Source: a candidate division KSB3 bacterium (lineage in GTDB: Bacteria > Moduliflexota > Moduliflexia > Moduliflexales > Moduliflexaceae). Taken from it: a stretch of 64,000 nucleotides of DNA. This document shows positions 1-17,628 of the stretch, piece by piece (within the stretch, counting starts at the first letter, position 1; every line of letters starts with the position of its first letter). The notes under the pieces were generated by a model. That model saw only the letters and a program-made list of their open reading frames with translations, had not been told where the DNA came from and did no database searches. Location: assembly GCA_002748425.1 (NCBI GenBank), contig PDSJ01000010.1, positions 123,643-187,642 of the forward strand. The letters are read 5' to 3'. The position numbers and the translations under genes were made by a program.

Positions 1-459
1 ATAGCGAATTTCCTGTGTTTCAGGATTGATAAGCCGTAGCCAAAAATCCCGTTGTTCTGAAATATGCGCCTTCCATGAGAACGTGAGAAAAGCCGGACGG
101 CTTTGAAAAGCGTCTCCCCAAGCGCAAGAAATGTCGATAGCCCCATCTTCCAGAGGAAAGGAATACTGCTGAATGGGGATATCCTGAGCTGTGACTGCCT
201 GACCCGCCCATTGGGGTTCCCAGACCGGGGAAAGCCAGTATAACAGCTGTCCTTTTCTATTTGTTAAGGCAGTATGTGTCAATTTTTTTCGAATAGCTGC
301 ATAACATTTATTACCGTTCAGACCCATGTGTTGTAATGCCTGTTCGATATCTTCGAGCGGCATGGCCTCGATCACATCATAATCCTGTTCTAAATTCGTG
401 ATGAGCTTCGTGAATTCATGTTTAAGTACCTTGTTGACCTCTTGCTTTAAGCTTGTCAT
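1..459 (-). CDS. Hypothetical protein, partial: ATG at 457-459, runs off the window edge. Overlaps the sigma-factor stop as ATGA, so it is probably co-transcribed and could be an anti-sigma or partner protein.
   Basis: Manual translation of the minus strand from 459 to 1 gives an uninterrupted frame of more than 150 aa (MTSLKQEVNKVLKHEFTKLITNLEQDYDVIEAMPLEDIEQALQHMGLNGNKCYAAIRKKL...). It is absent from the ORF track only because it has no stop inside the window. The ATG overlaps the TGA of the upstream sigma gene. Confidence 0.4.
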   Translation of the reverse strand, partial: MTSLKQEVNKVLKHEFTKLITNLEQDYDVIEAMPLEDIEQALQHMGLNGNKCYAAIRKKLTHTALTNRKGQLLYWLSPVWEPQWAGQAVTAQDIPIQQYSFPLEDGAIDISCAWGDAFQSRPAFLTFSWKAHISEQRDFWLRLINPETQEIRY

Positions 460-1271
460 TGATATTCTCCTTCTGATAACTGCTCGTACAAGCGTTTCAG
501 ACATGCATTGCTTTTCAATCTTCTATTTGCGTTGTAGACGTGTGTGATTGGAATTTTGAGCTCAGCTGCGATGTCGCGGGCTTTGGTACCATACGAGGAA
601 AAACAGTATTTCAGGATTTCCGTCAGTTCCTTGTCCTGTTTTACACAGTCTAGCATATGCTCCTGTAGCTTGAGTTCATTCAGTTCTTTCAGGTGTTTCC
701 AGACGATTGCGCGCGCTTTGTCCCAGGCCTGTCCCAGATAGTTTCCGCCTACGCCTTCTGACCTGTTGCCGGGGGGAATATCGTCATTGATGCGATCGAG
801 CATGTACGTGATGACTTGTTCAAGCGCCGCATCATCTCCTCGATCCTGAAAAATTCTGTTTCGCAAGGCTGCGATCGTGTGCTCGTCGAGGGTCTCCACA
901 GCCTCGATACCGTCAAGCAGCCTCTGCTCCGGTTCCTGTGCACATTCCTCATTTACTTCCCAGTCAATAACCTCCTCCAAGACATAGACATGCTTGGCGA
1001 TTACTGCTTTCGTAGTCAGATGATTGACTTTGCTCCAGACGATATTCCGAAGGCAGTGAGGCAAAGAGACTCTGTCCTGTGGCCAGCTTCGGCGGCCTTC
1101 AAGCAGGTCTTCCAACGCCTCATGGACGAGGTCTTCCGCCGACGGCGCGCCCGGAATGTTCCGAAGCTGTCTCCCGAATTGTTTCTGCACAGCAAAGAAC
1201 AGTTTTTTCCACTGCTCCTCGCTGAGTTCCTGTAAAGCTGAAAGAAGATATGAAGTCGATTTCGTATTCAT
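456..1271 (-). CDS. Sigma-70 family RNA polymerase sigma factor, ECF-like, with an unusually long linker between regions 2 and 4
   Basis: 271 aa. Region-2-like segment EDLVHEALEDLLEGRRSW...SLPHCLRNIVWSKVNHL. C-terminal region-4-like helix-turn-helix YGTKARDIAAELKIPITHVYNANRRLKSNACLKRL. Confidence 0.6.
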   Translation of the reverse strand: MNTKSTSYLLSALQELSEEQWKKLFFAVQKQFGRQLRNIPGAPSAEDLVHEALEDLLEGRRSWPQDRVSLPHCLRNIVWSKVNHLTTKAVIAKHVYVLEEVIDWEVNEECAQEPEQRLLDGIEAVETLDEHTIAALRNRIFQDRGDDAALEQVITYMLDRINDDIPPGNRSEGVGGNYLGQAWDKARAIVWKHLKELNELKLQEHMLDCVKQDKELTEILKYCFSSYGTKARDIAAELKIPITHVYNANRRLKSNACLKRLYEQLSEGEYQ

Positions 1272-1546
1272 ACTGAGCTCTTATAAACGTATACCCTAGT
1301 TGGAAAAAAATTTGCCATTGAAGAAAAAAATTGTGAAGGATCGCAAAAAATTCAGCATAGCGGTATAAAAGTGTACAAGGGCGGAAAGGTCAAAAGAAAT
1401 TTCAAAAAAAATTTCCCAGGCACCGTAAAAAATCTAAGAACGCGGTACAGAATGAATGAGCGGGGAATGAGAAATCGAAGATCTTCCGCTTTGGAGATCA
1501 CGTTTCATACACTTATTAACGTTACTATTTATCGGAGGAAAAAATT

Positions 1547-2080
1547 ATGTTACGGAGAATTTGTTTGACTTCCTTAGTTGCTGTCGTATTTACTGTTGCT
1601 CTGAGTTCAATGGTTTTCGCGCAAGGAGGTTCAGCCGCCTTGGCAAAACTTGGCTGGGAGCTGTTGAATAATGAAAACCTGACTGGCGGACTTGGCGATG
1701 CCGGCGGCGAATTGGTTGATGCTGCTGCTGATGCCGGTGAACGGCGTTTACGAGGACGGGAAGAGAATACCGTCTCCACACTCGATTTCGAGGGTTATGC
1801 GGATGTGGATAGAATTACTTCAGATGATAAAGCGCTGATCGATATTAACGTGCTGAATCTTGATAATGTCGATATCGATAATTTGAGAATTAACGCCAAT
1901 GCCCACTTGCAGTCAGTCAACGCCGATGATAGGGCGATGATTGCGGTGAATGGCGTCTATCTGAACGATTTCAAGTCGGAGAGAACGGATATTAAGACGA
2001 CAACAATTGTGAGGGGAAGAATGAAAGCGACCGACAAGGCCAGTATCAGTATCAATACTGTATCCAGCTCGAAATTCTAA
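1547..2080 (+). CDS. Secreted hypothetical protein with an N/D/I-rich repeat region
   Basis: N-terminal signal peptide MLRRICLTSLVAVVFTVALSSMVFAQG. Shine-Dalgarno GGAGG 8 nt upstream of the ATG. C-terminal half is rich in beta-strand-like LIDINVLNLDNVDIDNLRINANAHL motifs. Same length (177 aa) as the neighbouring gene. Confidence 0.6.
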   Translation: MLRRICLTSLVAVVFTVALSSMVFAQGGSAALAKLGWELLNNENLTGGLGDAGGELVDAAADAGERRLRGREENTVSTLDFEGYADVDRITSDDKALIDINVLNLDNVDIDNLRINANAHLQSVNADDRAMIAVNGVYLNDFKSERTDIKTTTIVRGRMKATDKASISINTVSSSKF

Positions 2081-2089
2081 ATATTGCAT

Positions 2090-2125
2090 AGAGGCGGCGT
2101 TAAGAGTGCTGCCTCTTTATTTTAT
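2090..2125 (+). terminator. Rho-independent terminator downstream of the first secreted-protein gene
   Basis: AGAGGCGGCG-TTAAGAG-TGCTGCCTCT forms a roughly 10-bp stem (two G-U pairs) with a 7-nt loop, followed by TTTATTTTAT. Confidence 0.55.
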
Positions 2126-2148
2126 GCTTTTTAGGGAGGAGATGCACT

Positions 2149-2682
2149 ATGAAAACGAAAACGTGGAAGATCATTTTGAGCGTCATCATCGTTCAGCTCT
2201 GTTGTGCTGCTCTTTCCGTATACTCTGAAGAAGGGAAAAGTGCTCAACAGCAACGTCACAGCAAGTTTATGGAACAGCATAAACGCGCTCATGAAAAACG
2301 AATGATCGAAAAGAAAGCTAGTGTGAAATCGAGTACACAGCCTGGTCGGACCTCATACTCCGTCACGATCGTGGATAGTTATGAAGATTGTGCTGGGTTG
2401 GAAGATTTGGGAAATATCAGGGCAAATGGTTCTGTACGGAATATCTATCACGTCACCAGAGTGACAGATCCTCGCATTCGCGCCTCGAAATGCCCCTTAC
2501 TAATTGGGAATATTGACGTGCAGGACGGAAACGTACGAGAAATTGCCACTTATACGGAGATACGAGGATCGATCTTGAGCCGTTCGCAGGATGTCATGCT
2601 TGGAAACATCCGCCTGAAAAACGCCGAAGTTGAGCAAATCAGAAATGTCGTCGAAATCGGGGGAAGCATTGAGATTAAATAA
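2149..2682 (+). CDS. Secreted hypothetical protein with three roughly 30-aa G-N-I repeats (beta-solenoid-like)
   Basis: Signal peptide MKTKTWKIILSVIIVQLCCAALSVYS. Shine-Dalgarno GGGAGGAG upstream. Three repeats: LGNIRANGSVRNIYHVTRVTD / LIGNIDVQDGNVREIATYTEIRGSI / MLGNIRLKNAEVEQIRNVVEIGGSI. Confidence 0.6.
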   Translation: MKTKTWKIILSVIIVQLCCAALSVYSEEGKSAQQQRHSKFMEQHKRAHEKRMIEKKASVKSSTQPGRTSYSVTIVDSYEDCAGLEDLGNIRANGSVRNIYHVTRVTDPRIRASKCPLLIGNIDVQDGNVREIATYTEIRGSILSRSQDVMLGNIRLKNAEVEQIRNVVEIGGSIEIK

Positions 2683-2706
2683 TGGGTACAGGACGAGGAG
2701 AAGAGA

Positions 2707-3843
2707 ATGACAGCGGTATTAAGACAGTGGGGCATTTGGGTGGGACTCGTGATGCTGACCGGATGCCAGCCGACTTTGACGGAAGGTGATCGGGAGTTTC
2801 TGGAATCACAGAGAACGCCGCGAACTAGAGTAACGGAATACAGCACAGCCCTGAAGCGCCTCGGCCGCATTATTAATAAAGGTGGGGGAGGGACTGCCAG
2901 AACCTTTCAGGTAAAACCGATCACCAACCAAAGCGGAGGCGAAGGTATCCCGTTTAATGTTACTGAAATGGTGATTACAAGCATTCAGAACTTATCGGGG
3001 AACGCCTTATATGTGGTTCCCCATTATTTTGACTATGAATCGCAGGATGCTGTGCTGAATACGGGAACGCAGGTTCGGAAGCGTCGTAAACCCGATATCG
3101 TTATTGCCGGGGCTATTACCGAATTCGATCAGGACATTTCCGTAGAGGACAGTGCCTTTGATATCAACCTTTTTGGACCGCTTTCAATTGAGGGGGAAGA
3201 TCTTGATCCGGAAATCGAGTATGCCTTCGATCATGCCAAATCTATTTCACGGATCGCTCTTGACCTTCGTTTGATGAATTATGATAGTACAGTGTTTTAC
3301 CCTGGAAAACAAGTCTCCAATACGATTGTCGTGGCCGAGGTGGAACGTGGAAGCAGCCTTGGCTTCATGATTTATGGATCAGGTATTAGCCGTTCAGGAA
3401 GAATCGCCGTCAGACAGGGCTTACATCAGGCAGTGAGAAATTTAATTGATTACAGCATGTTACAATTAATGGGAATACAGTACACCATCCCGTTTTGGAA
3501 AACGCTTGACAATCGTCATGATTCGTTAGGACAAGAATACCTGGCAGAGTGGCGTCAAGAGTTTTTGAATATTGACGAGCCTATGAAGGTCGGCCGCATT
3601 CAAGCCTGGCTGCTGAACTATGATTTAGGGCCGGTATATGTAGACGGAACCCTGTATCAGGAGATTCCAAAATCTGAATATGGAAAATTCCAGCGAATTA
3701 CACAGGCTTTTGCATTGAAATACCTCTACGAGTACGCTCCTCATTCCAGCTTGATTTCTGATATCGAACAAAGTAATACGTTTCTTTCCGCCGACATGCT
3801 GGTAACACTTTATATGATGCTGATCGAGACATTGCCCTTGTAA
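2707..3843 (+). CDS. CsgG-like outer-membrane lipoprotein (curli-type secretion channel family) with a C-terminal extension
   Basis: Lipoprotein signal ending LTGC. The core DIVIAGAITEFDQDI...RIALDLRLMNYDSTVFYPGKQVSNTIVVAEVERGSSLGFMIYGS...AVRNLIDYSMLQLMG matches the E. coli CsgG architecture (NIMVEGSIIGYESNV...QIAVNLRVVNVSTGEIL...CLMSAIETGVIFLINDG). Lies 24 nt downstream of the second secreted-protein gene. Confidence 0.5.
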   Translation: MTAVLRQWGIWVGLVMLTGCQPTLTEGDREFLESQRTPRTRVTEYSTALKRLGRIINKGGGGTARTFQVKPITNQSGGEGIPFNVTEMVITSIQNLSGNALYVVPHYFDYESQDAVLNTGTQVRKRRKPDIVIAGAITEFDQDISVEDSAFDINLFGPLSIEGEDLDPEIEYAFDHAKSISRIALDLRLMNYDSTVFYPGKQVSNTIVVAEVERGSSLGFMIYGSGISRSGRIAVRQGLHQAVRNLIDYSMLQLMGIQYTIPFWKTLDNRHDSLGQEYLAEWRQEFLNIDEPMKVGRIQAWLLNYDLGPVYVDGTLYQEIPKSEYGKFQRITQAFALKYLYEYAPHSSLISDIEQSNTFLSADMLVTLYMMLIETLPL

Positions 3844-6332
3844 TGGAAGGGAGAGAATGACTTCAAAAAATCCGTTACCAAAGGTGATAAAGGGTGCCCG
3901 AAAGTTCTCTCCATATTGTCCTCTCAGCAGCTGCAGTTTGATTTCGCGCAGGGCCTTGACCGCATTCAAGCCTTGCTTGAGATAGAAAAACATGCCGGCG
4001 CTGATGCCTTTAGCGGATACCGAGTCCACAGACCAGAGTGTGACAGTGGTTGTCATAGTGCCGGCATACATAAAATCCCGCGTGAGGCCCATGATCCCCT
4101 TTCCCTTGCGAAATGTCCCCCGCCCGGTATTGCAGGTCGCAGGTCGAGAAGACATCCGACATTAGAAGGAGATCGTCGGATAAAATCAGAGCCGGTTGGT
4201 CGAGAAGGCTGATTTGTCTAGGAATAAGACCGTGCATCGAAAATAGAAGATGCTGATAATCGTCCAGACTGCCCTGACTGTTCATATGCAACAGGTTCGC
4301 GCGGGACGCGTTTCCCCGAAGCTGCAAGGGTCGGCTGTCTACCGGGGCTTGGAACAGTTCTGCAACCAGTCGAGCTTCTTCCTCGGTCTCCGGAAGCTCG
4401 TTAATCTTTCCGCCCTGAAAGGCTGAGACCACCGATTGAAGTTGTGAGGCTCTTGTGGCTGTTTTGTCTAGGCGTTGATAGAGTTGTTGATGCTCTGGAT
4501 AGGCAAAGGCCAGAAAAGGATAGCGGGAGGCCGGAGCAGCCTACAGCGTATATGAGGAGTTAACAAAAGGCTTTTCCTGGGCGGGAACCGGACTATACTC
4601 GCGCTCGACCGTGCTGTCGATATAATCTGACAGCATGGCGTGGCGCATATCCGCGACTTGTTGTTGAATGGCGTATTCTCCCAATCGGGAGAAGGTACAT
4701 CTGCGTCTGCTGCGTCCCAATGAGCCACAGTATCGTATTTTCCGACATCACATGATACGCCAGCATCAGTTCGTCCGGACGCAGTGTACGGGAGCGGAGT
4801 TCATTTAGGTCGATCGGCTGAGGAAATCGCAGAGCGTAGTACTCAGGGCAGCGGCTCTGCAGTGTGCTGCGTAATGTGCGCTCTTCGCCTTTAAGGGCGG
4901 TAATTCGCCGTTCTAATTCCGTGACTCGCTCAAGCGTCTGCCGGGGGCGAGCAAGTTCGTCCGACAGGTTGTGCTGCATCTGATCGAGCTGTATGCCGAG
5001 TTGTTCTTCGCGCTGGCGAAGCTTATTCGGAACGCCTGCAAAACGGCGGGTGCCGGTTTTGCCCATTTGCTCCAGGAACACGCGTCTCTGTCTGTGTTCG
5101 AATATTTCAAAGGCTTTGCGGTCGTAGCCCTGCCCCGGGTGCTGCTTGGTGCAGTCGGCCCAACAGCGCGAGAAACGCATCATACACCTCGAATTTAGTA
5201 CCCATCACGTTCCGGTAGTCATTGCAGACACGGAATTCAGCGCGTAAGTGTTCGATATGCCCGATCGCCTGTTCATAATGCTGTACGGCCTCCTAGTCGC
5301 GTTGGCGTTCTACTTCTGCGGCTGCCAGCCCGCTCAGTGCTTCCCAGAGTATACTGCGAGGCTGAAGACACCCTCGCCGAGGCGTACACTGCTGTTAAAG
5401 GCGTCATGCACCTGCTGCGTTTTGCCGAGCAGTGCGTAGAGCTTGCCTATCTGCATCAATGAAGTGCTTTGACGCCTCGGCTCCCCTATGGACAGAGCGA
5501 GAGATAGAGACTGCTGAAAGGCCTCCATGGCTTCCTGCATCCGGCCATTATCACGATAAACCATGCCGATCCCCGTCAGGGTCCCGGCCTGCCCCCGGGG
5601 ATCGTTCAGGGTACGCCTGAGCGTCAAGGCATTCTGGTAAAAATCCAGCGCTTGTTCATAATCGTATTGCTTCCGATAGACGACCGCGATATTATTAAGC
5701 GTAGCGGCTTCGCCGCGCCGGTCGCCGACTGTTCGTTTGGCCTTCAGCGCCAACGCGTAATACGACAGTGTTTCGTCATAGTGGCCGAGATGCCAGGAGA
5801 TCGCGCCGATATTGCTGAAGATTCGGCCCTGGGCGCCGATGTCCTGAAGCTGCTCTCGGATCGTCAGCGCTTGACGGTAGCTGTACAGGGCTTCCTGAAA
5901 ACGTCCCCGGCGTTCATACAAATCTCCAATATTGTTCAACACATCAGCCTCCAAGTCGCTGCGCCTAAGCTGCCGATAACGTGCGTGGGCCTGCTGGTAA
6001 TGTTCTAGGGCGGAGAGATCTTCACCAGCGTAAAAGTGAGCGATGCCAAGGTTGGCGAACGCGTGGCCTTCATGTTCAGTCTGCCCGAGCAGATGAGTTA
6101 GGGAAAGGCTCGGGCGATACGCGTCCAGCGCGTCTTCATATCGTTCGAACTCTTCGGACGCCCAGCCCAGCGGATATAGAAACACGCTGATACGCTGTAA
6201 ATTTTTAGAACGCCGGGCTTCTTTCAGGCCGGCTTGCCAAGCTTTCAGGGCAGCGGCGTAGTCTCTACTCTTGAAGGTGGCCTGGCTGTTTTCGCCAAAC
6301 TGGCATAGCACTAAAAGGTATAATTTATGCAT
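3625..6332 (-). pseudogene. Disrupted TPR-CHAT (caspase-like peptidase) gene: TPR repeats 5334-6332, linker 4593-5183, CHAT His region 4010-4432, CHAT Cys region 3870-4155
   Basis: The 332-aa fragment carries tandem TPRs (LNNIGDLYERRGRFQEALYSYRQAL, LNNIAVVYRKQYDYEQALDFYQNAL). The 196-aa fragment has the pre-CHAT motif ELMLAYHVMSENTILWLIGTQ. The 140-aa fragment has LPETEEEARLVAELFQ...YQHLLFSMHGL (His motif). The 176-aa fragment has ATCNTGRG...GLTRDFMYAGTMTTTVTLWSVDS...FRAPFITFGN (Cys motif and C-terminal signature). Fragments sit in different frames; manual translation of 5184-5333 shows several in-frame stops. The C-terminal frame runs 220 nt into the CsgG-like gene on the other strand. Confidence 0.55.
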
Positions 6333-7468
6333 AGATCCAGGTTCACGCCCTCATATATGCGCTGTTCTGCTGATTCTGTGTTAGGGTCACAGTCCAGATG
6401 AACAAACAAGCCTTGACCGAGGAGGGCGATCGAGGGGGTGAGACGATAGTGAAATCCAGCGCCGCCGGCGTAACGCACACGGCGGCCTTCATAGGGAAGA
6501 TCGAGGTCTCTACGTTTCCGCTCGCTTTCGCCGTAATAGCGCAGATCGGCGACAAACGGAATGCTGAAACGCGGCGTCGCGTGATAAAGTAGCTTGAGTG
6601 CCCCAAACAACTCGCTACCGATGCTGTTTTCCGACTCTTCAATCATCTTTCCGCCGATGGATTCTTCGCTTGTAAACTGTGTGATGTATTGCAGAGACAG
6701 CGTCATATCCACAGTATCCAGCACTGCGATTTGAAGATCAGCTCCCGCCGATAATTTGTCTCCAATTTGAAGTGTGTCCGCATCATTTTCCGTGTCGATC
6801 CCGAAGTGTGAGTAGCCGAGATACGCGTGAATGTGTCGGCGGGGGGATTTTTTCCAGCTGTATGCTGCGTGAAGCAGAATTTCATCGCCCGGATCGTACT
6901 CGTTCAAGACTTCATCCCAGCAAAGATCGTACTGCCCGTAGTATACATAGCCGGAATACACTCCGACACTGTGAATACCACTTTCGCGTTCCAAGCCTAG
7001 TGTGGCGCCGAGGTTCAGGCCCTCGTCTAAAATATCGACACGGAACAGATCGTTTTGCTGAAAGTGATCGCGCTGCAGGATCCTTTCAGCGCTGAGGTCG
7101 TCGTTATCAAGATGTGCTTTGCCTGTTGGGAGATTGACAGCAAAATCCATCACGAATCTTATCGGATTTTGAGTCGGGAGCGTATAGCTGTAAATAGCGT
7201 TGATAAAGGTATCCGTGAATCCGGAAAGGGCAAAATCATCATCGCCTTCTCGGCTGAGTTCTGTGTGGGCGTAGGTAGTATCCAGGGTCACGGCAAGAGC
7301 ACCGCGCTCGTAGTCCCATTGTAAGGGCACTGCTGTTTGAAAGCCCGTATGTTTAGGGGAGTCGTCATCGCGAAAGCTGTCGTATTGCAGAACCATACTC
7401 ACATGGCTCTGGCAGAATGCGGAAAGGCTACCGAGTAGCAGCGCCCCGAGCAACAGGGCGCTGTACAC
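6311..7468 (-). CDS. Putative outer-membrane beta-barrel protein
   Basis: Signal peptide MYSALLLGALLLGSLSAFC. Alternating hydrophobic, Y/G-rich composition. C-terminus LCINYTF ends in an aromatic residue, typical of OMP barrels. Overlaps the start of the TPR fragment by 22 nt. Confidence 0.6.
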   Translation of the reverse strand: MYSALLLGALLLGSLSAFCQSHVSMVLQYDSFRDDDSPKHTGFQTAVPLQWDYERGALAVTLDTTYAHTELSREGDDDFALSGFTDTFINAIYSYTLPTQNPIRFVMDFAVNLPTGKAHLDNDDLSAERILQRDHFQQNDLFRVDILDEGLNLGATLGLERESGIHSVGVYSGYVYYGQYDLCWDEVLNEYDPGDEILLHAAYSWKKSPRRHIHAYLGYSHFGIDTENDADTLQIGDKLSAGADLQIAVLDTVDMTLSLQYITQFTSEESIGGKMIEESENSIGSELFGALKLLYHATPRFSIPFVADLRYYGESERKRRDLDLPYEGRRVRYAGGAGFHYRLTPSIALLGQGLFVHLDCDPNTESAEQRIYEGVNLDLCINYTF

Positions 7469-7744
7469 TGTTGTGTCAGGTATTTTATATCCGTATCTGG
7501 TTGTGATTCATGTTTTCAGCGGGATTCGTCAACAAGAATTTCGATTCTATGCGCTCGAGGACGATTTCCCCAGGAGTCGGGACAATTCAGGGAATCGTGT
7601 ATAGGTCTTGAAGGGCCGTTGTTCTGTCCGCCTGAGATCACCAACGCTTCGTTGTCGTCTGAAACAGCCTCGCCAGAGGAAGAATGCGGCGTGTCGTCGC
7701 CATGCACCTTAAACTCGAACATCGCGCTCATGTCGCGAGGCGGG

Positions 7745-10040
7745 TCAGTTGTGCCTAGGGCTGCCGCTCAAGACGGCCAGCGTCATCCCTAGGCCGCGGC
7801 TGACGGCTCGCTGTCCGGATCGCACGACTCTGGTCTCACGGGTCAGCCGGTTTCTGAACGTGATATCGACTGTATAGGCGAAGACCAGGGTCGTACCTTT
7901 ACCCAGATCATCTTCGCCGCTAATCAAGCCGTCCGCCTGCCATGAATCCAACTCAATGTCGATCGGCGTTGCGTTCGTTTGTGGTGAAAACAGGCCCGGA
8001 GTGGGCTCAGCGTCCGTCCGTGCGATCTCAGCCTGTGAAAACCTGCGGCTCAATTCCTCATCCCGCTGGGTCAGCCGGGCTTCTAAAAGGGCACTGGCTT
8101 CGCTTTCGATCAGTCCGATATCTGAAAAGGCCTTTTGTCCGCTGAGGAGCACGGCTGCCGTGCTGTCCGGCACAGGCAGCGGAACAGGCGCATCGTCTGG
8201 CAGCGAGGCGAGATCCACGAATTCGTTCCGCCGCCGGCTCCCGTTGTCTCCCCAAAGTCCGCTGCCAACGGAAGTGCTTGGGATGACGGCAGCATAATAA
8301 TTTTTCCGTTAAAGTACCCGGCAGGCAGAGACTGCGCCTGCGTTGCTGCTGAAAAAATAGCAAAAACTGTCAGAAAAAGAAAAGCGAAGCTCAAAAGTGA
8401 AAACAACGGCGGATTCGCATTATTCCCTTTGTTTGGATCGTTCGTAGTCATATGATCTTTATGGCTGTTATAAGGAAGAGTACGGTATTTCCAGTACAGA
8501 GGAACTCTGTTTGTACCCGGATCCTCGTATATATAGCCAAATCTCCATTCGGCTGGACTAACAGACTCATCTTCACCCGTTTGATTCCAGCCTTCGTTTG
8601 CTAATTCGTCTATATTAGTTGTGGTCATATGATCATCCGGTACATCCAACGGCCCCTCCAATTTTTTATATTTTCTGTATAGTGGTATTGTATGAGGGAT
8701 TTTTTTATTTAAAACGTGACTCAATAAGCGCTCGCATTCATAATTTTGGTTGGGAGGGGCGGGACTCAATCTATCCAAATGGTTTTCATACTTTCCAGAG
8801 TACATGCGGTAAAGTGGACTTGTTGACAACTCAAATATCACAGTGCTTTTTTCGCCACCGCTATAAACCGTTTTCCGTCAAGTCGATCGTGAGCCATTCT
8901 GACGCGTTATATGGGATTGGGCCTGAAGGAGGCGTTAGGGCGACATCCAAAGCCATGATCGGATTGGGCGCAAAGTTCACACTGGTCATGCCGCTGCCGC
9001 TGTATGCGAGCGACGTCACTTTTGCCGTCACGTTTTCCGAACCGGGCCTCGGCCACGAACCATCGTTTGAGAGGGTGACAACGCCTCTCCCATCCTTATA
9101 CTGTCAGTGTCGACGTCGAAAGCCTTCCCTGGTCGGCGCTCAGGGAAATTGAGATCGGGGTGGACGACGCGGTTCCCGTGCTGCTCTTGTTGATCACGAC
9201 AGTGAGCGTCGTACTCGTGGTTCCAAACGGCAGCGGATTCGGATCGGCGGACAGGGCGATCGTCAACTGTGCTGGAGGAAGCGGAGTCGGTGCGGGCGGC
9301 GCTTCCGGCGTCACGGTCACTTTGACCGGCGTTGCAGTCGGTTTTTCAGGGATCGGCGTGGGCAGCATTCTCTGCACGCTTGCTTGGAAACTTCGCGAAG
9401 GTGAACGCCCGTCAGAGATGACGCAGGTGAAAATTCGGTGTTTGGCGTCTGCGTTCAGGGGATAGGGATCGGGAAACTTCGCCCCCACTGCCGTGCCGGC
9501 AGAAAAGGGGCCGTTGACGCTGACGCCGTTGCGTTCGGTCAGAATGGCGTGTAAGCGGTGGCGATCCTTGTCCGGGGCATCGATGAGGGCTGTACCTCAG
9601 CTCACATCGATCGACTCGCCGGCCTTTGCCAAGCCCGGAACGCGCAAAGGGTTTTCGCCAAGCAGGAAGTCTTCAAAGGGAGCTAGGGAAAGGGCGACTT
9701 GAGAGTCGCGACAGATATCGATTGTGCGGCTTGCCACAAGTGGAGTTTCGCGTGTCAGTGTGCCCCGGGCCGTGACCTGATAGCGGCAAGGTGGATCGTA
9801 AAGAGTGAGCGGAATCTCCGCTGGCAGAGGCAGAGGGACTGTGATGCCCAAGATTCGAGGTTCCGCCGGCTGCCCGAGTTCGTTTAAGCCGATCACATCA
9901 ATGGTCAGGCCGGTCAGTTTGGCCTGGGTATCCTGACCGGCAAACAGGCTCAGTGCCGGACCGGCTCTGTTTACGCTTCTGGTTGGACTGGACGACTCTT
10001 TTTTGCAGCCTTTGGCGCGGATCACGGATGAAAGTATCAA
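7745..10040 (-). pseudogene. Fragmented cell-surface protein: signal/lipobox-like N-terminus, Ig-like Pro/Thr-rich segment, in-frame TGA at 9597-9599, DUF5648-like LYR...DHMTT repeats, internal hydrophobic segment
   Basis: ORFs 9597-10040 and 9096-9488 are in the same frame, separated only by a TGA (...GESIDVS * GTALIDAPDK...AVGAKFPDPYP...), verified by manual translation. Upstream in-frame sequence CFFLLLLILSSVIRAKGC looks like a signal peptide with a lipobox. Fragments 8110-8841 and 7745-8218 are in other frames. Repeats PLYRKY..DHMTTTN and PLYWKY..DHMTTND. The 8400-8800 stretch is visibly AT-rich. Confidence 0.35.
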
Positions 10041-10375
10041 CAGAAGCAGAAAAAAGCAGTCGCTTGCAGGGGATGTGGATCACATAGTGCGGTTTTGTCC
10101 GGAACCGCAGGAATTTGCTTCCAAAGGAGTTAAGGAGCTTTTGCCCTGTACTGCGATGAGATCCGAAGGGACTGACGGAGTCAATCCTGCGACAGGCATT
10201 TGCAGGACTCTGTGACACGAAATGCGTGTGTGTGCCGAGAGAGCTGTTACACGAAATTAAGCTTGACGAAATTCGTTACTCAATGTTAGTGTTCTCCAGA
10301 TATTCTCTGGAATGATGTTCTGCTATGTTAAAAAATTCGGCACTTTTATGACGCAGTCAGGCGTGTAAATATCTT

Positions 10376-12352
10376 ATGACACAAGAGGAGAAGAACCACG
10401 AAAACGCTCAGGATCGAGAACAGGAGCAGCAAGAAGAGAAAAAACGAGAATTGGAAAAGCCCCGCAAACCGCGACAAACGTCGCTTTCAATCTGGGGCTT
10501 GCTGCTTGCGCTCGGCGCTGCTGCACTCTTTTATCATGTCCTCGCCCTGCATGATGACAAGATGCCCTACAGCGTGTTTAAGGAAACATTGCGTCAGGGG
10601 CAGGTTCGGCGGGTATTTATCGGAGATGAGTCGATTAGCGGTGAATTAACGCAACAAGACGAAAAAGGCAATCCGATTCCATTTACGACAGTAAAAATCG
10701 ACGATCCGGATTTGATCCAAGAGCTGGAGCAGCAGGCGGTTGAGTATTCCGGCAGACACAGTCGCGTCTGGTTGTCCGGGATCATCGGATGGGGACTGAC
10801 GATCGTGTGTGTGATACTTATGCTTGTCGTGATATTGAGGCGTTTTGGCCCCGGAGGCAGTATCATGGCTTTTGGCAAAAGTCATGCGAAGTTTTACGAA
10901 GAAGATGAGATGAGGGTCACTTTTGATGATGTGGCCGGTATTGAGGAGGCCAAGGAAGAGCTGCTGGAAATCATCGAATTTCTGAAAACGCCTGATAAAT
11001 TTACGAATTTAGGGGGAAAGATTCCAAAGGGCGCCTTACTGGTCGGTCTTCCGGGAACAGGTAAAACCCTGCTGGCCAAAGCCGTGGCTGGAGAGGCGCA
11101 GGTCCCGTTTCTCAGCATCAGCGGATCAGCCTTTGTGGAAATGTTCGTCGGGGTTGGTGCATCGCGGGTGCGGGATTTGTTTCAGCAGGCTGAACATAAA
11201 GCTCCGTGCATTATCTTTATCGATGAGCTTGATGCGCTGGGGAAATCTCGTGGGGTTCATCCGGCAGGCGGGCACGATGAAAGGGAACAAACCTTAAATC
11301 AGTTGCTGGTTGAAATGGATGGTTTTGACAGCCGGCACGGTGTGATTATCATGGCTGCGACCAATCGTCCCGAAATCCTCGATCGAGCCTTGATGCGTCC
11401 TGGGCGTTTCGATCGACAGATTTTTGTCGATCGCCCTGATATTAAGGGACGCGAACAGATTTTGACCGTCCATGGCAATGCGATCAAAATGTCGGAAGAC
11501 GTTGATTTGGCCCTGATTGCCGCCCGCACTCCGGGTTTTGTGGGAGCGGATCTGGCGAATGTGGTGAATGAAGCGGCGCTGCTGGCGGCTCGTCGAGATA
11601 AGCAGGCGGTGGAGATGAGTGATTTCGAGGAAGCGATCGATCGGGTTGTCTCGGGTCTGGAGAAGAAAAGCCGGGTGATGTCGAAGCGCGAAAAGGAAGT
11701 GACAGCGTACCATGAGGCCGGCCATGCCTTGGTGGCGAGTTTTCTGCCGAATGCAGCACCGGTGCATAAGGTCTCGATTATTCCACGAGGCTTCTCTCTG
11801 GGAGTGACGATGTTTTTGCCCGTAGAAGAGCGCTATCTCATGACAAAGTCAGAGCTGCTGGACCAAATCGGTAGTTCGCTCGGCGGGCGGATTGCTGAAG
11901 AATTAGTATTTCATGAGGTTTCGAGCGGCGCTCAGAGTGATTTGAAACGCTCCAGTGACATTGCCAGAATGATGGTCAAGGAATATGGTATGAGTGAGCG
12001 CCTCGGTCTGGTGAGCTTTGAGGGCGGGGGCAGCCCTCAGTTTCTGGACGGTTTCGCTTATAGCGACGTTGTGTACAGCGATAAAACTGCCTATCAGATC
12101 GATCTTGAGGTCAAACGCATTATCGATGAGACCTATGCGAAAGCCCGAAAAATTCTTGAAGACCGTCGCGATGTGCTGAAAACCCTTGCGGATGTGCTGC
12201 TGGAAAAAGAAGTGATCGAACGTGAGGAATTTGAACGGATTATCGGGAAGACAGCTGAGCCGCATGATCAAGGCTCTGGAACAGCAGAGACAGCCCAGGA
12301 AGCTTCCGAGCATGAGATCGAGACGCTGCTGCCGGCTGAGTCAGCGCCTTGA
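10376..12352 (+). CDS. ftsH: ATP-dependent zinc metalloprotease FtsH
   Basis: 658 aa. N-terminal transmembrane segments. Walker [19 protein letters not shown]. Second region of homology [11 protein letters not shown]. Zinc motif HEAGHALVA. Confidence 0.95.
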
Positions 12353-12368
12353 AAAGTGCGCGTCGTAA

Positions 12369-13604
12369 TTATCCCAGGCGACGAATTGCCCGAATTCTTT
12401 CCAGCACCGGTGGGTGCGAATAGTTCAGAAAGACATACAAGGGATGAGGCGTCAGATTGGAAAGATTATGGGCTGACAGGGTTGTTAAGGCATTGATGAA
12501 AGGTTCAGGGTCTTTAGTGGTTTCCACGGCAAAACGATCGGCCTCATATTCATGTTTGCGAGAAAATATCTGCATGAAAATCGACAGGATCAGTTCGATC
12601 GGCGCATAGAGCATTCCAAAAAAAATCAGCCCCGCATATATTGATGTTTTTTCCATGTAAAATGCTTCGAATAAGCCTTTATGCCTGAGAAAGATCGAGA
12701 GCAGGAACAGCATAATTCCTGTGTGGACAATCCCGATCAGCATGCCCTGGAGAAGATGTTTCTTTTTGTAATGGCCGATTTCATGCGCCAGAATGCCCAG
12801 CAGTTCCGCAACGGAATGTTTATCGATCAGGGTGTCGAACAAGGCGATTCGCTTATGCTTGCCGAATCCGGTAAAAAATGCATTTGATTTTGTCGAGCGC
12901 TTTGAGCCGTCCATGACAAAAAGATTTTCCAGCGGGAAGTCTACCGAGTCTGCGTAGGCCAAAATCGCAGAGCGCAGTTCTCCTTCTTCAAGTGGAGTGA
13001 ATTTGTTGAACAGGGGCATGATCCAGCTCGGCGCAATAAACTGGAGCAGGATCGTCACCAGCGTCAGGGTGATCCAGCAATAGAGCCAGGCTGAGGATCC
13101 TGCATATTGAAAAAATGCGAGGGCTCCGGCCAGAATCGGCCCGCCGATGAGGATCGAAAGAGCCAGCGCTTTCAGCAGATCGATGATGAAGACCTTCAGT
13201 GTCGTGTTGTTAAACCCGAAACGTTCTTCGATCACAAAAGTCTCATAGATACTGAACGGCAAGGAAACGAGCGATTTCAACAGCATCAGAATCCCAATGT
13301 ACAGCAATCCGTTCACAAGAGGATGCAGTCCCCAGCCTCGTACAAGCCGATCGAGAGCGTTAAAGCCTCCGGAAAACCAGAATATCAGTGTGACGAGTAC
13401 GCTGACGCTTGAGGTGATGAAGCCAAAACGGGTATTGACTCGGGTATATTCCTGGGACTGACGATACTTCTCAGCATCGTAAACCCCTGTGAATTCTTTG
13501 GCTAATACAGGGCTTAACGCCCGTAAATTCATTAAATCTGCGAAAAGGTTCAGGGCGTACCCAAACAGGCTTGTACTGAGAATGAGGAGCGCGTAAGTAT
13601 TCAT
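12369..13604 (-). CDS. M48 family zinc metallopeptidase (Ste24/HtpX-like), polytopic membrane protein
   Basis: 411 aa with multiple transmembrane helices, the HEIGH zinc motif (ILAHEIGHYKKKH) and FTGFGKHKRIALFDTL. Confidence 0.8.
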   Translation of the reverse strand: MNTYALLILSTSLFGYALNLFADLMNLRALSPVLAKEFTGVYDAEKYRQSQEYTRVNTRFGFITSSVSVLVTLIFWFSGGFNALDRLVRGWGLHPLVNGLLYIGILMLLKSLVSLPFSIYETFVIEERFGFNNTTLKVFIIDLLKALALSILIGGPILAGALAFFQYAGSSAWLYCWITLTLVTILLQFIAPSWIMPLFNKFTPLEEGELRSAILAYADSVDFPLENLFVMDGSKRSTKSNAFFTGFGKHKRIALFDTLIDKHSVAELLGILAHEIGHYKKKHLLQGMLIGIVHTGIMLFLLSIFLRHKGLFEAFYMEKTSIYAGLIFFGMLYAPIELILSIFMQIFSRKHEYEADRFAVETTKDPEPFINALTTLSAHNLSNLTPHPLYVFLNYSHPPVLERIRAIRRLG

Positions 13605-13716
13605 CGTTTATTTCAGTATTGTCTTTCAGGAAGGTTCAGGGCGTACCCAAACAGGCTTGTACTGAGAATGAGGAGCGCGTAAGTATTCATCGTTTATTTC
13701 AGTATTGTCTTTCAGG
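13545..13716. repeat. Perfect 86-bp tandem direct duplication (13545-13630 and 13631-13716) covering the start codon and first roughly 20 codons of the M48 peptidase gene
   Basis: AAGGTTCAGGGCGTACCCAAACAGGCTTGTACTGAGAATGAGGAGCGCGTAAGTATTCATCGTTTATTTCAGTATTGTCTTTCAGG appears twice back to back. The second copy encodes MNTYALLILSTSLFGYALNL and then hits a stop. Confidence 0.9.
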
Positions 13717-13933
13717 TTATGCGTCAAACAGTCAACTTGCTTTGCCAGCACATCAGGATATTGTAAAGCCCCATCATAACGGACGCTTTCGTCATCCGGC
13801 AGTTCTTGCCGCCACACGACTTTCGCGCTGAACCTTACTACAACGACGATCGTGCAGGGCGTCATGCATCGCGTCCGCATACGCACAATACAAGAAGCGA
13901 CAGTCCGCTATTTCTGTCAATAGAATAGCGTCG

Positions 13934-15592
13934 TCATTTTCGTTTTGCCCTTTTTCCGGTAAGAATCGTTTCCGCGATGCGCAGGCCGTCCAGAGCCGAA
14001 GAACTGATGCCTCCTGCGTATCCGGCAGCTTCTCCGGCCAGATACAAGCCCGGCACTGATGAACTCAGCGTGTCGGGATTGCGCTCAAAACGGACAGGGC
14101 AGGAAACTCGGGTTTCGATGCCGATCAGGGTCCCTGAGTGCAGAAATCCGGGAATGATCCGTTCGAAATAGCACAGTCCTTCACGAAGGGCGGCTGTGGT
14201 ACGGGCGGGCAAGAGCATATCAATACGTCCTGAGCGTATGCCCAGGCGGTAGCTGCTGTCTGAACGCTGCAAGCCGGCTTCACCACGTACAAAGGCGGAC
14301 GCGCTCTGAGCCGGGCAGCAATACGGCGCACTGTTGTCCCGGCCGGCTCCTGCCGAAAATGCCTGTTGTTCGAGCCTGGCAAGCGTTGCAAAGACCTCTT
14401 GCGCAGATGCATACTGCGATGCATCCTGATTGACGATCAAGCCGGCATTCGCGTAACAGCCATTTCGTAAAAAGGGACTCATACCGTTGGTACAGAGCTG
14501 AGCTTCATCGCTCGTTGAGGCAATAATCTCACCCCCGGGACACATGCAGAAGGTTGTGACTCCGGCAATTCCCGAATACGCTGGCGGGCGGCTGGTCATA
14601 CGATACTCTGCAGCGCCGACAATCCCGCGAGGCGGTATCACGCCATACTGACTGCGATCGATGAACTCTTGCGGGTGCTCGATACGGCAGCCTGTCTGGA
14701 AGTCTTTGAGGCGGTGCCGAATTCCACGCTGAACGAGCTTCAGGATCAAGTCTCGTGCACTGTGACCACAGGCAATGAGTGTCAGCGGTGCGTCGAGGCG
14801 TTCGCCGTTTCGGAGCACGACTCCTTGACAGCGCTGATCACGAATGATGATGTCCTGCACTGCCGCTCCCCATCGGAAGCTGCCTCCCCAGTCTTCAATC
14901 TGGCGTCTGAGCCGTTTTACCATGTGGGGTAAAATATCAGAGCCGATATGTGGGTGATGATCGTAGAGAATCCGGCGCGGCGCACGAGCCGCAACGTATG
15001 CGTTCAGGAGAAAAGCGATGCGGCGATCTTTAATGCGGGTGTAGAGTTTTCCATCGGAATACGTGCCTGCCCCGCCTTCGCCGAACAGATAGTTACTCTC
15101 AGGATTGAGGCAGCGACTTTGATGGAAGTTCTCAATATCGCTGCGCCGCCTGTCGACATCAAAGCCGCGATCCAGGATCAGCGGTTGACAGCCATACAAG
15201 GCCAGCAGATAGGCTGCCATAATTCCCGCCGGGCCGCTTCCCACGACAATTGGCTGTCTGGGCAGTTCGTTCAGCGTGGCGAGCTGATACAGCGGGTCTT
15301 CCTGATCGGCCTGGGGCGTCTGAATACGGAGATGTCGGTCCTCGGCGATTGGCAGTCCCTCCGCTACGATCGCCTTGAGCGTGTAAACAACACGAAGATG
15401 CGGTTTCTTTCTGGCATCCAGACTGCGGTGAAGAATGCTGTAGTCCAGAATATCTTCTTGTCGGATGCCGCAACGCTCTGCAATCCAGGGATGAAGCTGT
15501 CGATCGCACCCTGTGGAACGCCGTTCTGCAAGGCGTTGAACGGGAATCTCGAACTGTGAGAGGTGAATTTCCTGAGTGTGCAGTGCAGTCAC
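13934..15592 (-). CDS. NAD(P)/FAD-dependent oxidoreductase (COG2509-like FAD-dependent dehydrogenase); likely GTG start at 15592 overlapping the upstream stop as GTGA
   Basis: Dinucleotide-binding motif PIVVGSGPAGIMAAYLLALYG. RSLDARKK near the N-terminus. C-terminal GLYLAGEAAGYAGGI. The 15649 start in the ORF track would overlap the HD gene by 61 nt. GTG at 15590-15592 gives a 2-nt coupled overlap. Confidence 0.75.
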   Translation of the reverse strand: MTALHTQEIHLSQFEIPVQRLAERRSTGCDRQLHPWIAERCGIRQEDILDYSILHRSLDARKKPHLRVVYTLKAIVAEGLPIAEDRHLRIQTPQADQEDPLYQLATLNELPRQPIVVGSGPAGIMAAYLLALYGCQPLILDRGFDVDRRRSDIENFHQSRCLNPESNYLFGEGGAGTYSDGKLYTRIKDRRIAFLLNAYVAARAPRRILYDHHPHIGSDILPHMVKRLRRQIEDWGGSFRWGAAVQDIIIRDQRCQGVVLRNGERLDAPLTLIACGHSARDLILKLVQRGIRHRLKDFQTGCRIEHPQEFIDRSQYGVIPPRGIVGAAEYRMTSRPPAYSGIAGVTTFCMCPGGEIIASTSDEAQLCTNGMSPFLRNGCYANAGLIVNQDASQYASAQEVFATLARLEQQAFSAGAGRDNSAPYCCPAQSASAFVRGEAGLQRSDSSYRLGIRSGRIDMLLPARTTAALREGLCYFERIIPGFLHSGTLIGIETRVSCPVRFERNPDTLSSSVPGLYLAGEAAGYAGGISSSALDGLRIAETILTGKRAKRK

Positions 15593-16179
15593 TGTTCCAA
15601 ATAGCCTTGTTGTACTGCCTGGTGAATGAGGCGCTCTGCGTATTCCCAAAGGGCCGGAGATCCGGCCTGGATTTCAGAGCAGCGTTTCAAGACCTTCTCG
15701 CTCGTCACACCGTGCTCTTGCCAGGACTTCCCTTTGGTGGCATAGTTGTGTAATAAGGGTTGAAATCGATCGAGAGAGGCGGCAAACTTGGCTTCCGGTG
15801 TGGACTGTTCTTCGAATTCATCCCACAGTGATCGCAGTTCCCGGGCTTGTTCTCCGGGGAGTAAGCCGAAGAGCCGATCGGCGGCGTTCTGCTCTCGTTC
15901 GGCTTTATCGCGGGCGGCGTCTTCGTCGTAGAGATAGGTGTCACCGGCATCAATTTCGACAATATCGTGAATTAACAGCATTTTTATGATATGAAAGATG
16001 TCAAGATCCGGCGATCGCGCCGAGTCTTTCAGCAACAGCGCCATCATGGCCAGATGCCAGGAGTGCTCTGCGTCGTTCTCTTTGCGGGAGGCATCCATCA
16101 GGTATGTCCGGCGGAAGATCTGTTTTAACTTGTCGATTTCTGTAAGAAATTCAATTTGCTGTTGAAGAATATCGTGCAT
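15589..16179 (-). CDS. HD-domain phosphohydrolase (YfbR-like 5'-deoxynucleotidase family)
   Basis: 196 aa with the HD motif ENDAEHSWHLA and a downstream HDIVEIDAGD. Confidence 0.7.
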   Translation of the reverse strand: MHDILQQQIEFLTEIDKLKQIFRRTYLMDASRKENDAEHSWHLAMMALLLKDSARSPDLDIFHIIKMLLIHDIVEIDAGDTYLYDEDAARDKAEREQNAADRLFGLLPGEQARELRSLWDEFEEQSTPEAKFAASLDRFQPLLHNYATKGKSWQEHGVTSEKVLKRCSEIQAGSPALWEYAERLIHQAVQQGYLEQ

Positions 16180-16213
16180 TGTGGGGCGGCTCCTTGTAGA
16201 CGTTGTGTGAGCG

Positions 16214-17233
16214 TTACACAGGGCAAATCGATGTGCTGCTGCGGATAGTGAGCCGGGGTTTCAGGACGGTGTGATGGCTCTGGTAATCCATGCCGTGTCG
16301 AATTTTTTCAAAGAGCAGTTCCGCTGCTTTTCGTCCGATTTCCTGCATAGGTTGATGAACTGTTGTTAATGGCACTTCAAAATATTCGGTAATGGCAATA
16401 TCATCATAGCCGATCAGCGAGATCTCCGTAGGCACGCGACGTTGTGCCTCTCGAATGGCCCGGAATGCCCCTAATGCCACGAGATCGTTATATGCAAAAA
16501 CAGCAGTCAGCTTTTCTGAGGCGTGAAGCAAGTCTTTCATCAGGTAATAGCCGCTTTCAACGGTAGTATCACTGATGCGGATGAGACGATTTTCATGCTC
16601 AATCCCCGCTTCTTTCAGCGCATCCAGATAACCGCGCAATCGATCCTGAGCACTTGTCTGCGCATCAGGACCGGCAATGTGGGCGATCTGCCGATGGCCA
16701 AGCTTGAGCAGATGTTCCATGGACATGAAGGCTCCGGCATAATTATCATTAATCACATAATCCACCCCGAAATCCTGAAAGCATTGGGACAGGGCAATTG
16801 TTGGAATATTATTCGTTCGCAATGCTGAGGCTAAAAACCCCGGGTTGACGACAGAGCCTACGAGAAGGCCATCGACTTGCTGTTCGTAAAAAAAACGGCA
16901 GAGATCGCGTTCCTTTGATTCCTGCTGGTAGCTGCAGCCGAAAAGAAATTTGGCACGTTCCTGCCATATTACGTGTTCGATTCCCTGCACGATTCTGGTA
17001 TAAAACGGGTTATGAATATCCTGAATCAGTACGCCGATTGAGATACTGTTTTCTTGAGGAGTGCTTGTTTCGGGAGGGATATAGCCGAGTTTTTTTGCAA
17101 TGCGCAGTACCATCTCGCGGGTCTCGTTTTTCACATCTGATTTATCCCGTAACGCCCGTGAAACCGTATTCACAGACACTCCGGCCTCGATCGCGATATC
17201 ATGCAGGCGTACTTGTTTGCGTCGTTTTTTCAT
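16214..17233 (-). CDS. LacI/GalR family transcriptional regulator
   Basis: N-terminal helix-turn-helix VRLHDIAIEAGVSVNTVSRAL and a periplasmic-binding-protein-like C-terminal domain. The start is more likely the internal ATG at 17233 (MKKRRK) than 17305. Confidence 0.8.
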   Translation of the reverse strand: MKKRRKQVRLHDIAIEAGVSVNTVSRALRDKSDVKNETREMVLRIAKKLGYIPPETSTPQENSISIGVLIQDIHNPFYTRIVQGIEHVIWQERAKFLFGCSYQQESKERDLCRFFYEQQVDGLLVGSVVNPGFLASALRTNNIPTIALSQCFQDFGVDYVINDNYAGAFMSMEHLLKLGHRQIAHIAGPDAQTSAQDRLRGYLDALKEAGIEHENRLIRISDTTVESGYYLMKDLLHASEKLTAVFAYNDLVALGAFRAIREAQRRVPTEISLIGYDDIAITEYFEVPLTTVHQPMQEIGRKAAELLFEKIRHGMDYQSHHTVLKPRLTIRSSTSICPV

Positions 17234-17305
17234 GCGTTTACTCTGGAAGGAGAGACTTTCGTGCGACATTATAAGTGCTACAACTATAATAGTAAAAGTA
17301 TACAT

Positions 17306-17628
17306 GGTAATGTAATGAGATATGTCAATATTTTATTGTAAAAATAATGTTTCCCCAGCGCTCCTGTTCGGGGCGCTGTGTTCTCTTTTTTTCTGAAATA
17401 CGGAATGATCTGGTGTTCATCTGAATGGTCCTTCTGAAACGCTCTGCAATACAGGGAAATTGATCGGCGGTGACAAGACTGGACGCTAAAAAAATTAAAA
17501 TGTATCAATTAATTCTTGACATAATATGATTACCATTATTTTTATATAATTATTGTTAATTTAATGTTGATAATGTCAATGTTGCCTTGTCCATAAAAAA
17601 TAACCCTTCAATTATGAGAGGCTGTCTT
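17306..17628. promoter_or_regulatory. AT-rich divergent control region between the LacI-family gene and the dehydrogenase operon; ATGTCAAT motif repeated at 17322-17329 and 17573-17580
   Basis: Visibly AT-rich. TTGACA at 17515-17520. Direct repeats AATGTTGAT and AATGTCAAT immediately upstream of the Shine-Dalgarno GAGAGG for the 17629 ATG. A similar AATGTCAATATT sits just upstream of the regulator gene. Confidence 0.4.

Follow-up and report, generated by a model that had tools for sequence, protein, structure and literature searches.

The DNA studied here is a stretch of 64,000 nucleotides from a candidate division KSB3 bacterium (GenBank assembly GCA_002748425.1, contig PDSJ01000010.1), hereafter called the window, and the element in question is a broken minus-strand gene for a TPR-CHAT protein together with the genes that accompany it. 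We conclude, with a probability of about 0.85, that positions 3865-10085 of the minus strand are the non-functional relic of a four-gene cell-envelope operon and form a real pseudogene cluster. This conclusion was drawn from the homology, the synteny and the lesions of the four genes, and from the reproducibility of the lesions in a second assembly. In the KSB3 metagenome-assembled genome (MAG), all four genes are without their native translation start, and three of them are also fragmented by frameshifts, nonsense codons and deletions. Their order on the minus strand, placed by tblastn from 10058 to 3865, is the same as in six intact loci of related Moduliflexota-type bacteria: L001 (uncultured Candidatus Moduliflexus sp., GCA_964602655.1), L002 (GCA_964477405.1) and L003-L006 (ENA metagenomes). 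The original prediction, made from the letters of the window, had announced a decaying TPR-CHAT gene. The decay is real, with about ten lesions that include large deletions and nonsense substitutions; the interval given for it was too short, since the decay reaches ~10085 and takes in two more pseudogenes upstream. The relic cluster is biologically ordinary, a dead member of the known TPR-CHAT kind.

The TPR-CHAT pseudogene and its lesions

CHAT (Pfam PF12770) is a domain of the caspase-haemoglobinase fold, clan CD, and its name reportedly goes back to Aravind and Koonin in 2002. The homologous coding remnant of the TPR-CHAT gene spans 3865-6302 on the minus strand, that is ~2.44 kb against 2.80-2.99 kb in intact relatives. 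Four open reading frames (ORFs) of this strand had been proposed to reconstruct one TPR-CHAT protein: 5334-6332 (332 aa, the TPR array, its first 7 codons being 3' sequence of the barrel gene read in another frame), 4593-5183 (196 aa, the linker and the pre-CHAT segment), 4010-4432 (140 aa, the His-motif part of CHAT, with SMHG and the His codon at 4234-4232) and 3625-4155 (176 aa, the Cys-motif part, with TCNTGRG and the Cys codon at 4134-4132). In Pfam, the first ORF matched TPR families (TPR_12, 1e-39) and the fourth matched CHAT PF12770 with an E-value of 1.8e-13 and 51 bits for a cutoff of 24. The third matched the same family slightly under this cutoff (E-value 6.8e-5, 22.9 bits), and no Pfam match was obtained for 4593-5183. 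Their stitched conceptual translation, 825 aa long, matched ten intact TPR-CHAT proteins of 931-996 aa at phmmer E-values of 1e-266 to 1e-284. Identity of these ten closest proteins to the remnant is 49-55% by BLASTP, or 56-58% when counted over aligned columns. Homologues at a greater distance, also TPR-CHAT proteins, number in the hundreds and come from cyanobacteria, Beggiatoaceae and other filamentous bacteria. Judged by this homology, which lies far beyond chance, the ORFs are indeed collinear pieces of one gene. They had been said to lie in different frames, and the frames do differ, although three are used and not four: 5334-6332 and 4593-5183 share one because two compensating frameshifts flank ~230 nt.

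The His motif HLLFSMHG, the Cys motif ATCNTGRG and the signature FITFGN, read at the outset, were all recovered in the three-frame translation. The remnant thus has the general layout of TPR-CHAT proteins, in which an N-terminal TPR array is joined to a C-terminal CHAT domain with the motifs S[LM]HG and CNTGRG; its SMHG and TCNTGRG align with SLHG and SACNTGRG in intact relatives. It differs from them in being a pseudogene. No continuous translatable CHAT domain is left: the His and the Cys are in different frames, ~72 aa and the strand before the Cys are gone, and a TAG stands at 4543-4541.

The breaks were mapped by combining tblastn of an intact relative against the window (E-values down to 1e-150) with the protein sequences of the relatives, the ends of their DNA and the coordinates of the motifs. 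The alignment to intact homologues that had been advised was thus carried out, and each piece and each break was located. The lesions, ~10 in total, comprise a 5' deletion, four frameshifts, two TAG codons, in-frame deletions of 72 and 5 aa, and a stop loss. Following the minus strand from the 5' end, the first is a deletion of ~200-300 nt after the TAG of the barrel gene (6313-6311): the 111-206-nt spacer and the ~25-33 signal-peptide codons of the relatives are gone, and homology starts ~3 codons past the barrel stop. A frameshift within 5378-5353 is followed by a CAG to TAG substitution at 5295-5293, where relatives encode Gln, and by a frameshift in a C3G4 run (5139-5133) by which the first frame is restored. 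The in-frame stops reported earlier between 5184 and 5333 are real, one of them, the TAG at 5295-5293, lying in the homologous frame. Another frameshift was placed at ~4679. The TAG at 4543-4541 stands directly before the in-frame deletion of ~72 aa, which covers the core of the CHAT domain (LYIVPTG...PFEAL). A 26-nt deletion at 4147-4141 removed the strand before the catalytic Cys, and a 15-nt deletion at ~3892-3889 removed the residues HWAPF. Finally, a run of seven T, which corresponds to TTTTTTTGA in L001, is shortened to six at 3870-3865, and the TGA stop is destroyed. As a consequence, the last ORF runs on to 3625, and its read-through tail overlaps a CsgG-like gene of the plus strand (2707-3843) antisense by 219 nt, in line with the first description of a frame that stays open into this neighbour. 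With its signal peptide, the strand preceding the catalytic Cys and ~72 residues from the CHAT core all deleted, the CHAT protease cannot be made.

The barrel ORF (6311-7468) and the first TPR-CHAT ORF, which starts at 6332, overlap by 22 nt. The original prediction gave this overlap exactly and took it as the mark of an operon. The ATG at 6332 is the 3' coding sequence of the barrel gene (ATG CAT AAA TTA TAC CTT TTA G) read out of frame. With spacer and signal-peptide codons lost to the 5' deletion, the coding sequence of the TPR array now abuts the barrel stop, hence the overlap. The comparison with relatives thus indicates that it is a product of deletion and not of ancestral coupling, so that the overlap itself is no evidence for an operon. 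An ancestral operon is nevertheless plausible from conserved synteny, since in all the intact relatives examined (L001, L002, L003-L006 and L023) the barrel gene has the TPR-CHAT gene next to it in the same orientation. In L023, a HepT-like gene (1260-1778; a toxin-antitoxin nucleotidyltransferase partner) is inserted between the two on the opposite strand, and they therefore need not be strictly co-transcribed everywhere.

The frameshifts might also be errors of sequencing or assembly, the gene being intact in the organism. Two of the ten lesions, and only two, are of the homopolymer type that such errors produce (C3G4 at 5139-5133 and T6 at 3870-3865). The remaining ones include two nonsense substitutions, the in-frame deletions of 72 and 5 aa, the 26-nt deletion and the 5' deletion of ~200-300 nt; large deletions and nonsense substitutions cannot arise as homopolymer errors. 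In addition, the two upstream genes are damaged in similar fashion. This question had been raised with the original prediction, and at the assembly level it was answered by the independent Logan assembly of SRR6011893, which is identical to window 1-13574 at every base (13,574/13,574 bases, 0 mismatches, 0 gaps). The protein of 378 aa encoded next to the locus is on record on this same Logan contig. On the evidence of the two assemblies, the lesions are not assembly errors, and we consider an intact gene hidden behind them extremely unlikely. The chance of continued expression through programmed recoding or phase variation is smaller still, practically nil: one frameshift does lie in a short homopolymer run, but the frame changes at four or more separate places, two TAG codons would have to be overcome as well, and this reading is effectively excluded by the physical loss of essential segments, among them signal peptide, CHAT core and pre-Cys strand. 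The NCBI annotation holds no intact product at the TPR-CHAT locus, and the 332-aa TPR fragment is absent from the recorded products; GenBank lists proteins of the window under two series of accessions (PID and PIE), with locus tags CSB45_024xx.

The four-gene cluster in relatives and its upstream relics

In L001-L006, the genes of the intact cluster are ordered Ig-like lipoprotein, FecR-domain protein, barrel, TPR-CHAT and are all co-directional. Gene 1 encodes 635-664 aa with weak Big_1/invasin Ig-like matches and a lipobox-like N-terminus, gene 2 encodes 434-463 aa with a signal peptide followed by a FecR domain (3e-6 to 8e-5), gene 3 a barrel of 383-388 aa, and gene 4 a TPR-CHAT protein of 931-996 aa with a signal-like N-terminus. 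FecR domains (PF04773) occur, for example, in the periplasmic part of FecR anti-sigma factors and in Leptospira LipL45. Gene 2 is like these envelope proteins in its FecR domain and signal peptide, but no sigma factor or TonB-dependent receptor adjoins it, and the window copy has lost the FecR domain. In a more distant locus (L024), a FecR gene again precedes the barrel. In L002, the intact TPR-CHAT gene is followed by a gene for a 1617-aa alpha-2-macroglobulin-family protein (13158-18011), which was not seen in the other loci; the family acts as bacterial protease inhibitor or trap, and its presence beside a protease thought to be exported in this scheme is intriguing.

The closest clade of TPR-CHAT proteins, ten in number, lies in this four-gene envelope cluster, whereas the more distant members do not. 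Thus, the cluster is absent around two distant TPR-CHAT homologues of Parabeggiatoa (P0011 and P0058). Distant barrel loci of Rhodothermales, Bacteroidota and Ignavibacteria (21-30% identical) have no CHAT or FecR neighbours and are for this reason uninformative on the module. No closer relatives of the KSB3 strain were found: the next barrel is 54% identical, and scans of genome and metagenome contigs gave relatives at 49% or below. A literature search for CHAT with FecR, with or without the outer membrane, returned no papers, and the papers on KSB3 genomes are silent on CHAT, curli and pseudogenes. The intact four-gene module appears to be undescribed.

Measured against the four-gene envelope cluster as defined in this analysis, the window retains the order and the strand of the genes; intact ORFs with native starts and signal peptides are not found in it. 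The relic of the lipoprotein gene, with its Ig-like (Big_1/invasin-like) domains, occupies 8428-10085 on the minus strand. It opens with an ATG at 10085-10083 that is followed by a TGA (10082-10080) as codon 2, and it carries further in-frame stops at 9599-9597 and 9098-9096 and frameshifts at ~9096 and ~8866; one internal repeat is missing. Its 3' end is deleted together with the stop codon and the spacer, and the gene is fused to the signal-peptide codons of the FecR gene in a chimeric ORF (8110-8841). Through this fusion the FecR-domain gene, whose relic lies at 7525-8394 on the same strand, lost its start codon. About 161 aa of it (aa 70-230) are deleted out of frame at ~8235, a stop and a frameshift follow at ~7743, and the frame changes twice. 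The FecR domain itself, aa 102-182 of the relatives, falls within the deleted part. The fragmentary ORFs 9597-10040, 9096-9488, 8110-8841 and 7745-8218 are the remains of these two upstream genes.

In its C-terminal part, the lipoprotein (window 8428-8862; L001 4979-6952) bears a repeated 'PLY+KY ... DHMTT' motif to which no Pfam family matched. This repeat may be lectin-like.

The barrel reading frame

The barrel ORF extends on the minus strand from a GTG at 7468 to 6311 and encodes 385 aa. This product is not on record by exact look-up; both NCBI and Logan call a 361-aa version (in NCBI from the ATG at 7396, CSB45_02425). The gene had been described as intact, which holds for its body and not for its start. 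The body is open, aligns end to end with ten relatives of ~385 aa (49-54% identity) and with one distant relative (35%), and retains the C-terminal YTF. The DNA alignment with three relatives located a degraded ancestral start region at 7469-7500: ATA (7488-7486) aligns under the ATG of the relatives, CCAG aligns under their GGAG Shine-Dalgarno sequence, and the two nucleotides CA are inserted at 7470-7469, after codon 6. Among the in-frame starts, the hydrophobic core is preserved only from the GTG at 7468. It is preceded by no Shine-Dalgarno sequence, and the n-region of the window copy has no Lys or Arg, compared with 2-4 in all ten close intact relatives. The start chosen by NCBI leaves the barrel without signal peptide.

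The family is small, with 12 proteins recovered in a word-indexed search. The barrel of the window matches Phenol_MetA_deg (PF13557) marginally (1.2e-4, 22.7 bits for a cutoff of 22), that of L003 at 1.2e-10. Its AlphaFold model is a closed barrel of ~16 strands with a long loop helix (predicted local distance difference test, pLDDT, 74.7; predicted template modelling score, pTM, 0.71). The best Foldseek matches were FadL, CymA and TodX. The PF13557 match and the predicted beta-barrel fold are features in common with these channels, from which the barrel differs in its low template modelling scores (TM-scores, 0.4-0.5), in its strand number and loop helix, in the tiny size of its family and in having FecR and TPR-CHAT neighbours instead of catabolic genes.

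Several points weigh against reading the whole block as a dead operon. The closest intact relatives are only ~50% identical, and for this reason the lesion calls at short junctions, such as the barrel start and the frameshift positions, rest on distant alignments. Signal peptides were judged by composition. Moreover, the 1,152-nt barrel body contains no frame-breaking lesion, against at least 19 in the other ~5 kb (~3.8 per kb); the Poisson probability of finding none was estimated at ~0.01, a hint of past or continuing selection on the barrel. The barrel could be a functional orphan, an outer-membrane channel kept by selection after its partners died and re-initiated at GTG 7468, which comes close to the original prediction of an intact gene beside a decaying one. 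Besides the 385 open codons among heavily damaged neighbours and the end-to-end alignment with the YTF kept, the GTG start still gives a hydrophobic h-region and a cleavage-like site (AFC|Q). We nevertheless find this doubtful in view of the ATG to ATA change, the 2-nt insertion, the loss of the Shine-Dalgarno sequence with none before the GTG, the basic n-region residues reduced to zero, and an NCBI start that removes the signal peptide altogether.

Residue conservation was also compared. The barrel keeps 90 of the 115 residues invariant in its relatives (78%) and the adjacent pseudogene 249 of 310 (80%), whereas intact members keep 88-100% in a leave-one-out count. The loss of family-invariant residues, 22% against 20% in the pseudogene, speaks against a functional barrel; as a test of selection on the barrel this retention was uninformative in direction, most of the divergence probably predating the decay. 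The ratio of nonsynonymous to synonymous substitution rates is unsuitable here, synonymous sites being saturated at ~50% amino-acid identity. Altogether, the most probable reading is that of a dying operon in which the barrel gene is the last to go. At best, it would be translated from the internal GTG with a crippled signal peptide.

Predicted location, comparison with Craspase and surroundings

The function predicted here for the intact module is read from its domains and its synteny. In relatives, each of the four products opens on a basic n-region and a hydrophobic stretch, followed by a small-residue site or a lipobox. By composition, a signal-like N-terminal hydrophobic segment is present in all ten closest intact TPR-CHAT homologues, which argues against a cytoplasmic location, and in 87 of the 120 TPR-CHAT homologues among the matches listed. 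The intact module would therefore be exported and work in the periplasm or at the cell surface, and not as a cytoplasmic defence effector. In such a scheme, the exported protease, of caspase fold, may bind its partners or substrates through the TPR array as a platform, with the FecR-domain protein as sensor or partner and the barrel as outer-membrane conduit or anchor. The exported TPR-CHAT protein would act on periplasmic or surface partners; the Ig-like lipoprotein and the FecR-domain protein readily suggest themselves for this part. We give even odds to the broader proposal that the intact cluster of Moduliflexota-type filamentous bacteria is an undescribed envelope caspase-like protease system, made of a surface lipoprotein with Ig-like domains, the FecR-domain protein, an outer-membrane barrel of ~385 aa dedicated to the system and a TPR-CHAT protease exported by Sec, which acts on periplasmic or surface substrates and not in cytoplasmic defence, the barrel in the KSB3 genome being perhaps salvaged via a GTG restart.

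The original prediction had placed the gene in the context of defence systems, naming type III-E Craspase. The Csx29 subunit of Craspase (PMC9825189, PMC11089037) is a TPR and CHAT protease, and this domain composition is what Csx29 and the window gene have in common. On this ground, the remnant could be that of a cytoplasmic defence effector, of the Craspase or another CHAT-effector type, whose sensor genes were lost. The window speaks otherwise: as had been reported at the outset for cas genes and CRISPR arrays, neither cas7-11 nor a CRISPR array adjoins the locus, and no regularly spaced repeats were found in the 64 kb. No gene of gRAMP size is present in the window either, the largest ORF encoding 892 aa. 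PADLOC returned a generic TPR match only and no defence model, no sequence similarity to Csx29 was seen beyond generic TPR, and the CHAT half of an intact homologue (P0003) gave no relevant match when searched with phmmer against all PDB chains. The intact homologues, predicted to be exported from their signal-like N-termini, stand between envelope genes in every locus. The defence framing was accordingly set aside, and a defence-effector origin is very improbable.

The plus-strand neighbour at 2707-3843 had been labelled CsgG-like. It has no Pfam, NCBIfam or PDB sequence match; at fold level the label is supported, the AlphaFold model (pLDDT 72.8) retrieving CsgG 4uv2 as best Foldseek match in the PDB (E-value 5e-8, probability 1.0, TM-score on target 0.51), followed by PelC. 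The protein has a lipobox-like LTGC at residues 17-20, and its model shows an extra C-terminal helical domain. It is preceded on the plus strand by genes for two 177-aa signal-peptide proteins (1547-2080 and 2149-2682), and the three together (1547-3843) look like a curli-like secretion trio. The trio is orthologous to three genes of L001 (1938-4616) located directly upstream of the four-gene cluster and co-directional with it. The four-gene block (window 3865-10085; L001 4979-12991) is inverted in the window relative to the same flanking genes. A search for flanking inverted or direct repeats that might explain the inversion or the deletions gave short, chance-level matches only, and no mobile-element genes explaining the inversion were found. 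The trio was seen in L021 and L022 as well, and in other genomes it recurs without the CHAT cluster, beside nSTAND1-WD40 (NLR-like), DUF4384, OmpA and Peptidase_C14 genes. Since it travels elsewhere with other genes, its adjacency to the CHAT cluster here is probably a lineage-specific synteny. The L001 orthologue of the first small trio protein has a sub-threshold match to the fungal HET-s prion-forming domain (PF11558, 5.5e-6, 26.7 bits for a cutoff of 32.2); a link of the trio to amyloid signalling or secretion is possible.

Among the 6.2-kb stretches of the window, the block 3865-10085 has the highest GC content (0.539, for a median of 0.50 and a maximum of 0.54), and the CsgG-like trio is GC-poor (0.46). 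Since the intact clusters of relatives are also slightly GC-richer than their flanks, this is probably a gene-specific composition rather than a trace of recent transfer. Promoter and terminator scans gave counts not above shuffled expectation, and an Rfam scan of window 1-14000 found nothing. At 13545-13716, a perfect tandem duplication of 86 nt (two identical copies) overlaps the 5' end of an M48 peptidase gene (12369-13604). The Logan contig ends within it, at window 13574; the duplication may exist in the genome or result from collapse or expansion during assembly.

In itself the locus is of minor importance, one dead representative of a family that abounds in filamentous bacteria. Its annotation should be that of a cluster of pseudogenes instead of four or more hypothetical proteins. 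It also shows operon decay in a clean natural case, all of the genes having lost their starts, and the open barrel ORF offers a test case for telling an orphaned survivor from a not-yet-broken pseudogene. What the comparison reveals, an envelope module of four genes conserved around a TPR-CHAT protease with predicted export, is mildly interesting, and it advises against projecting the Craspase paradigm onto TPR-CHAT proteins with signal-like N-termini.

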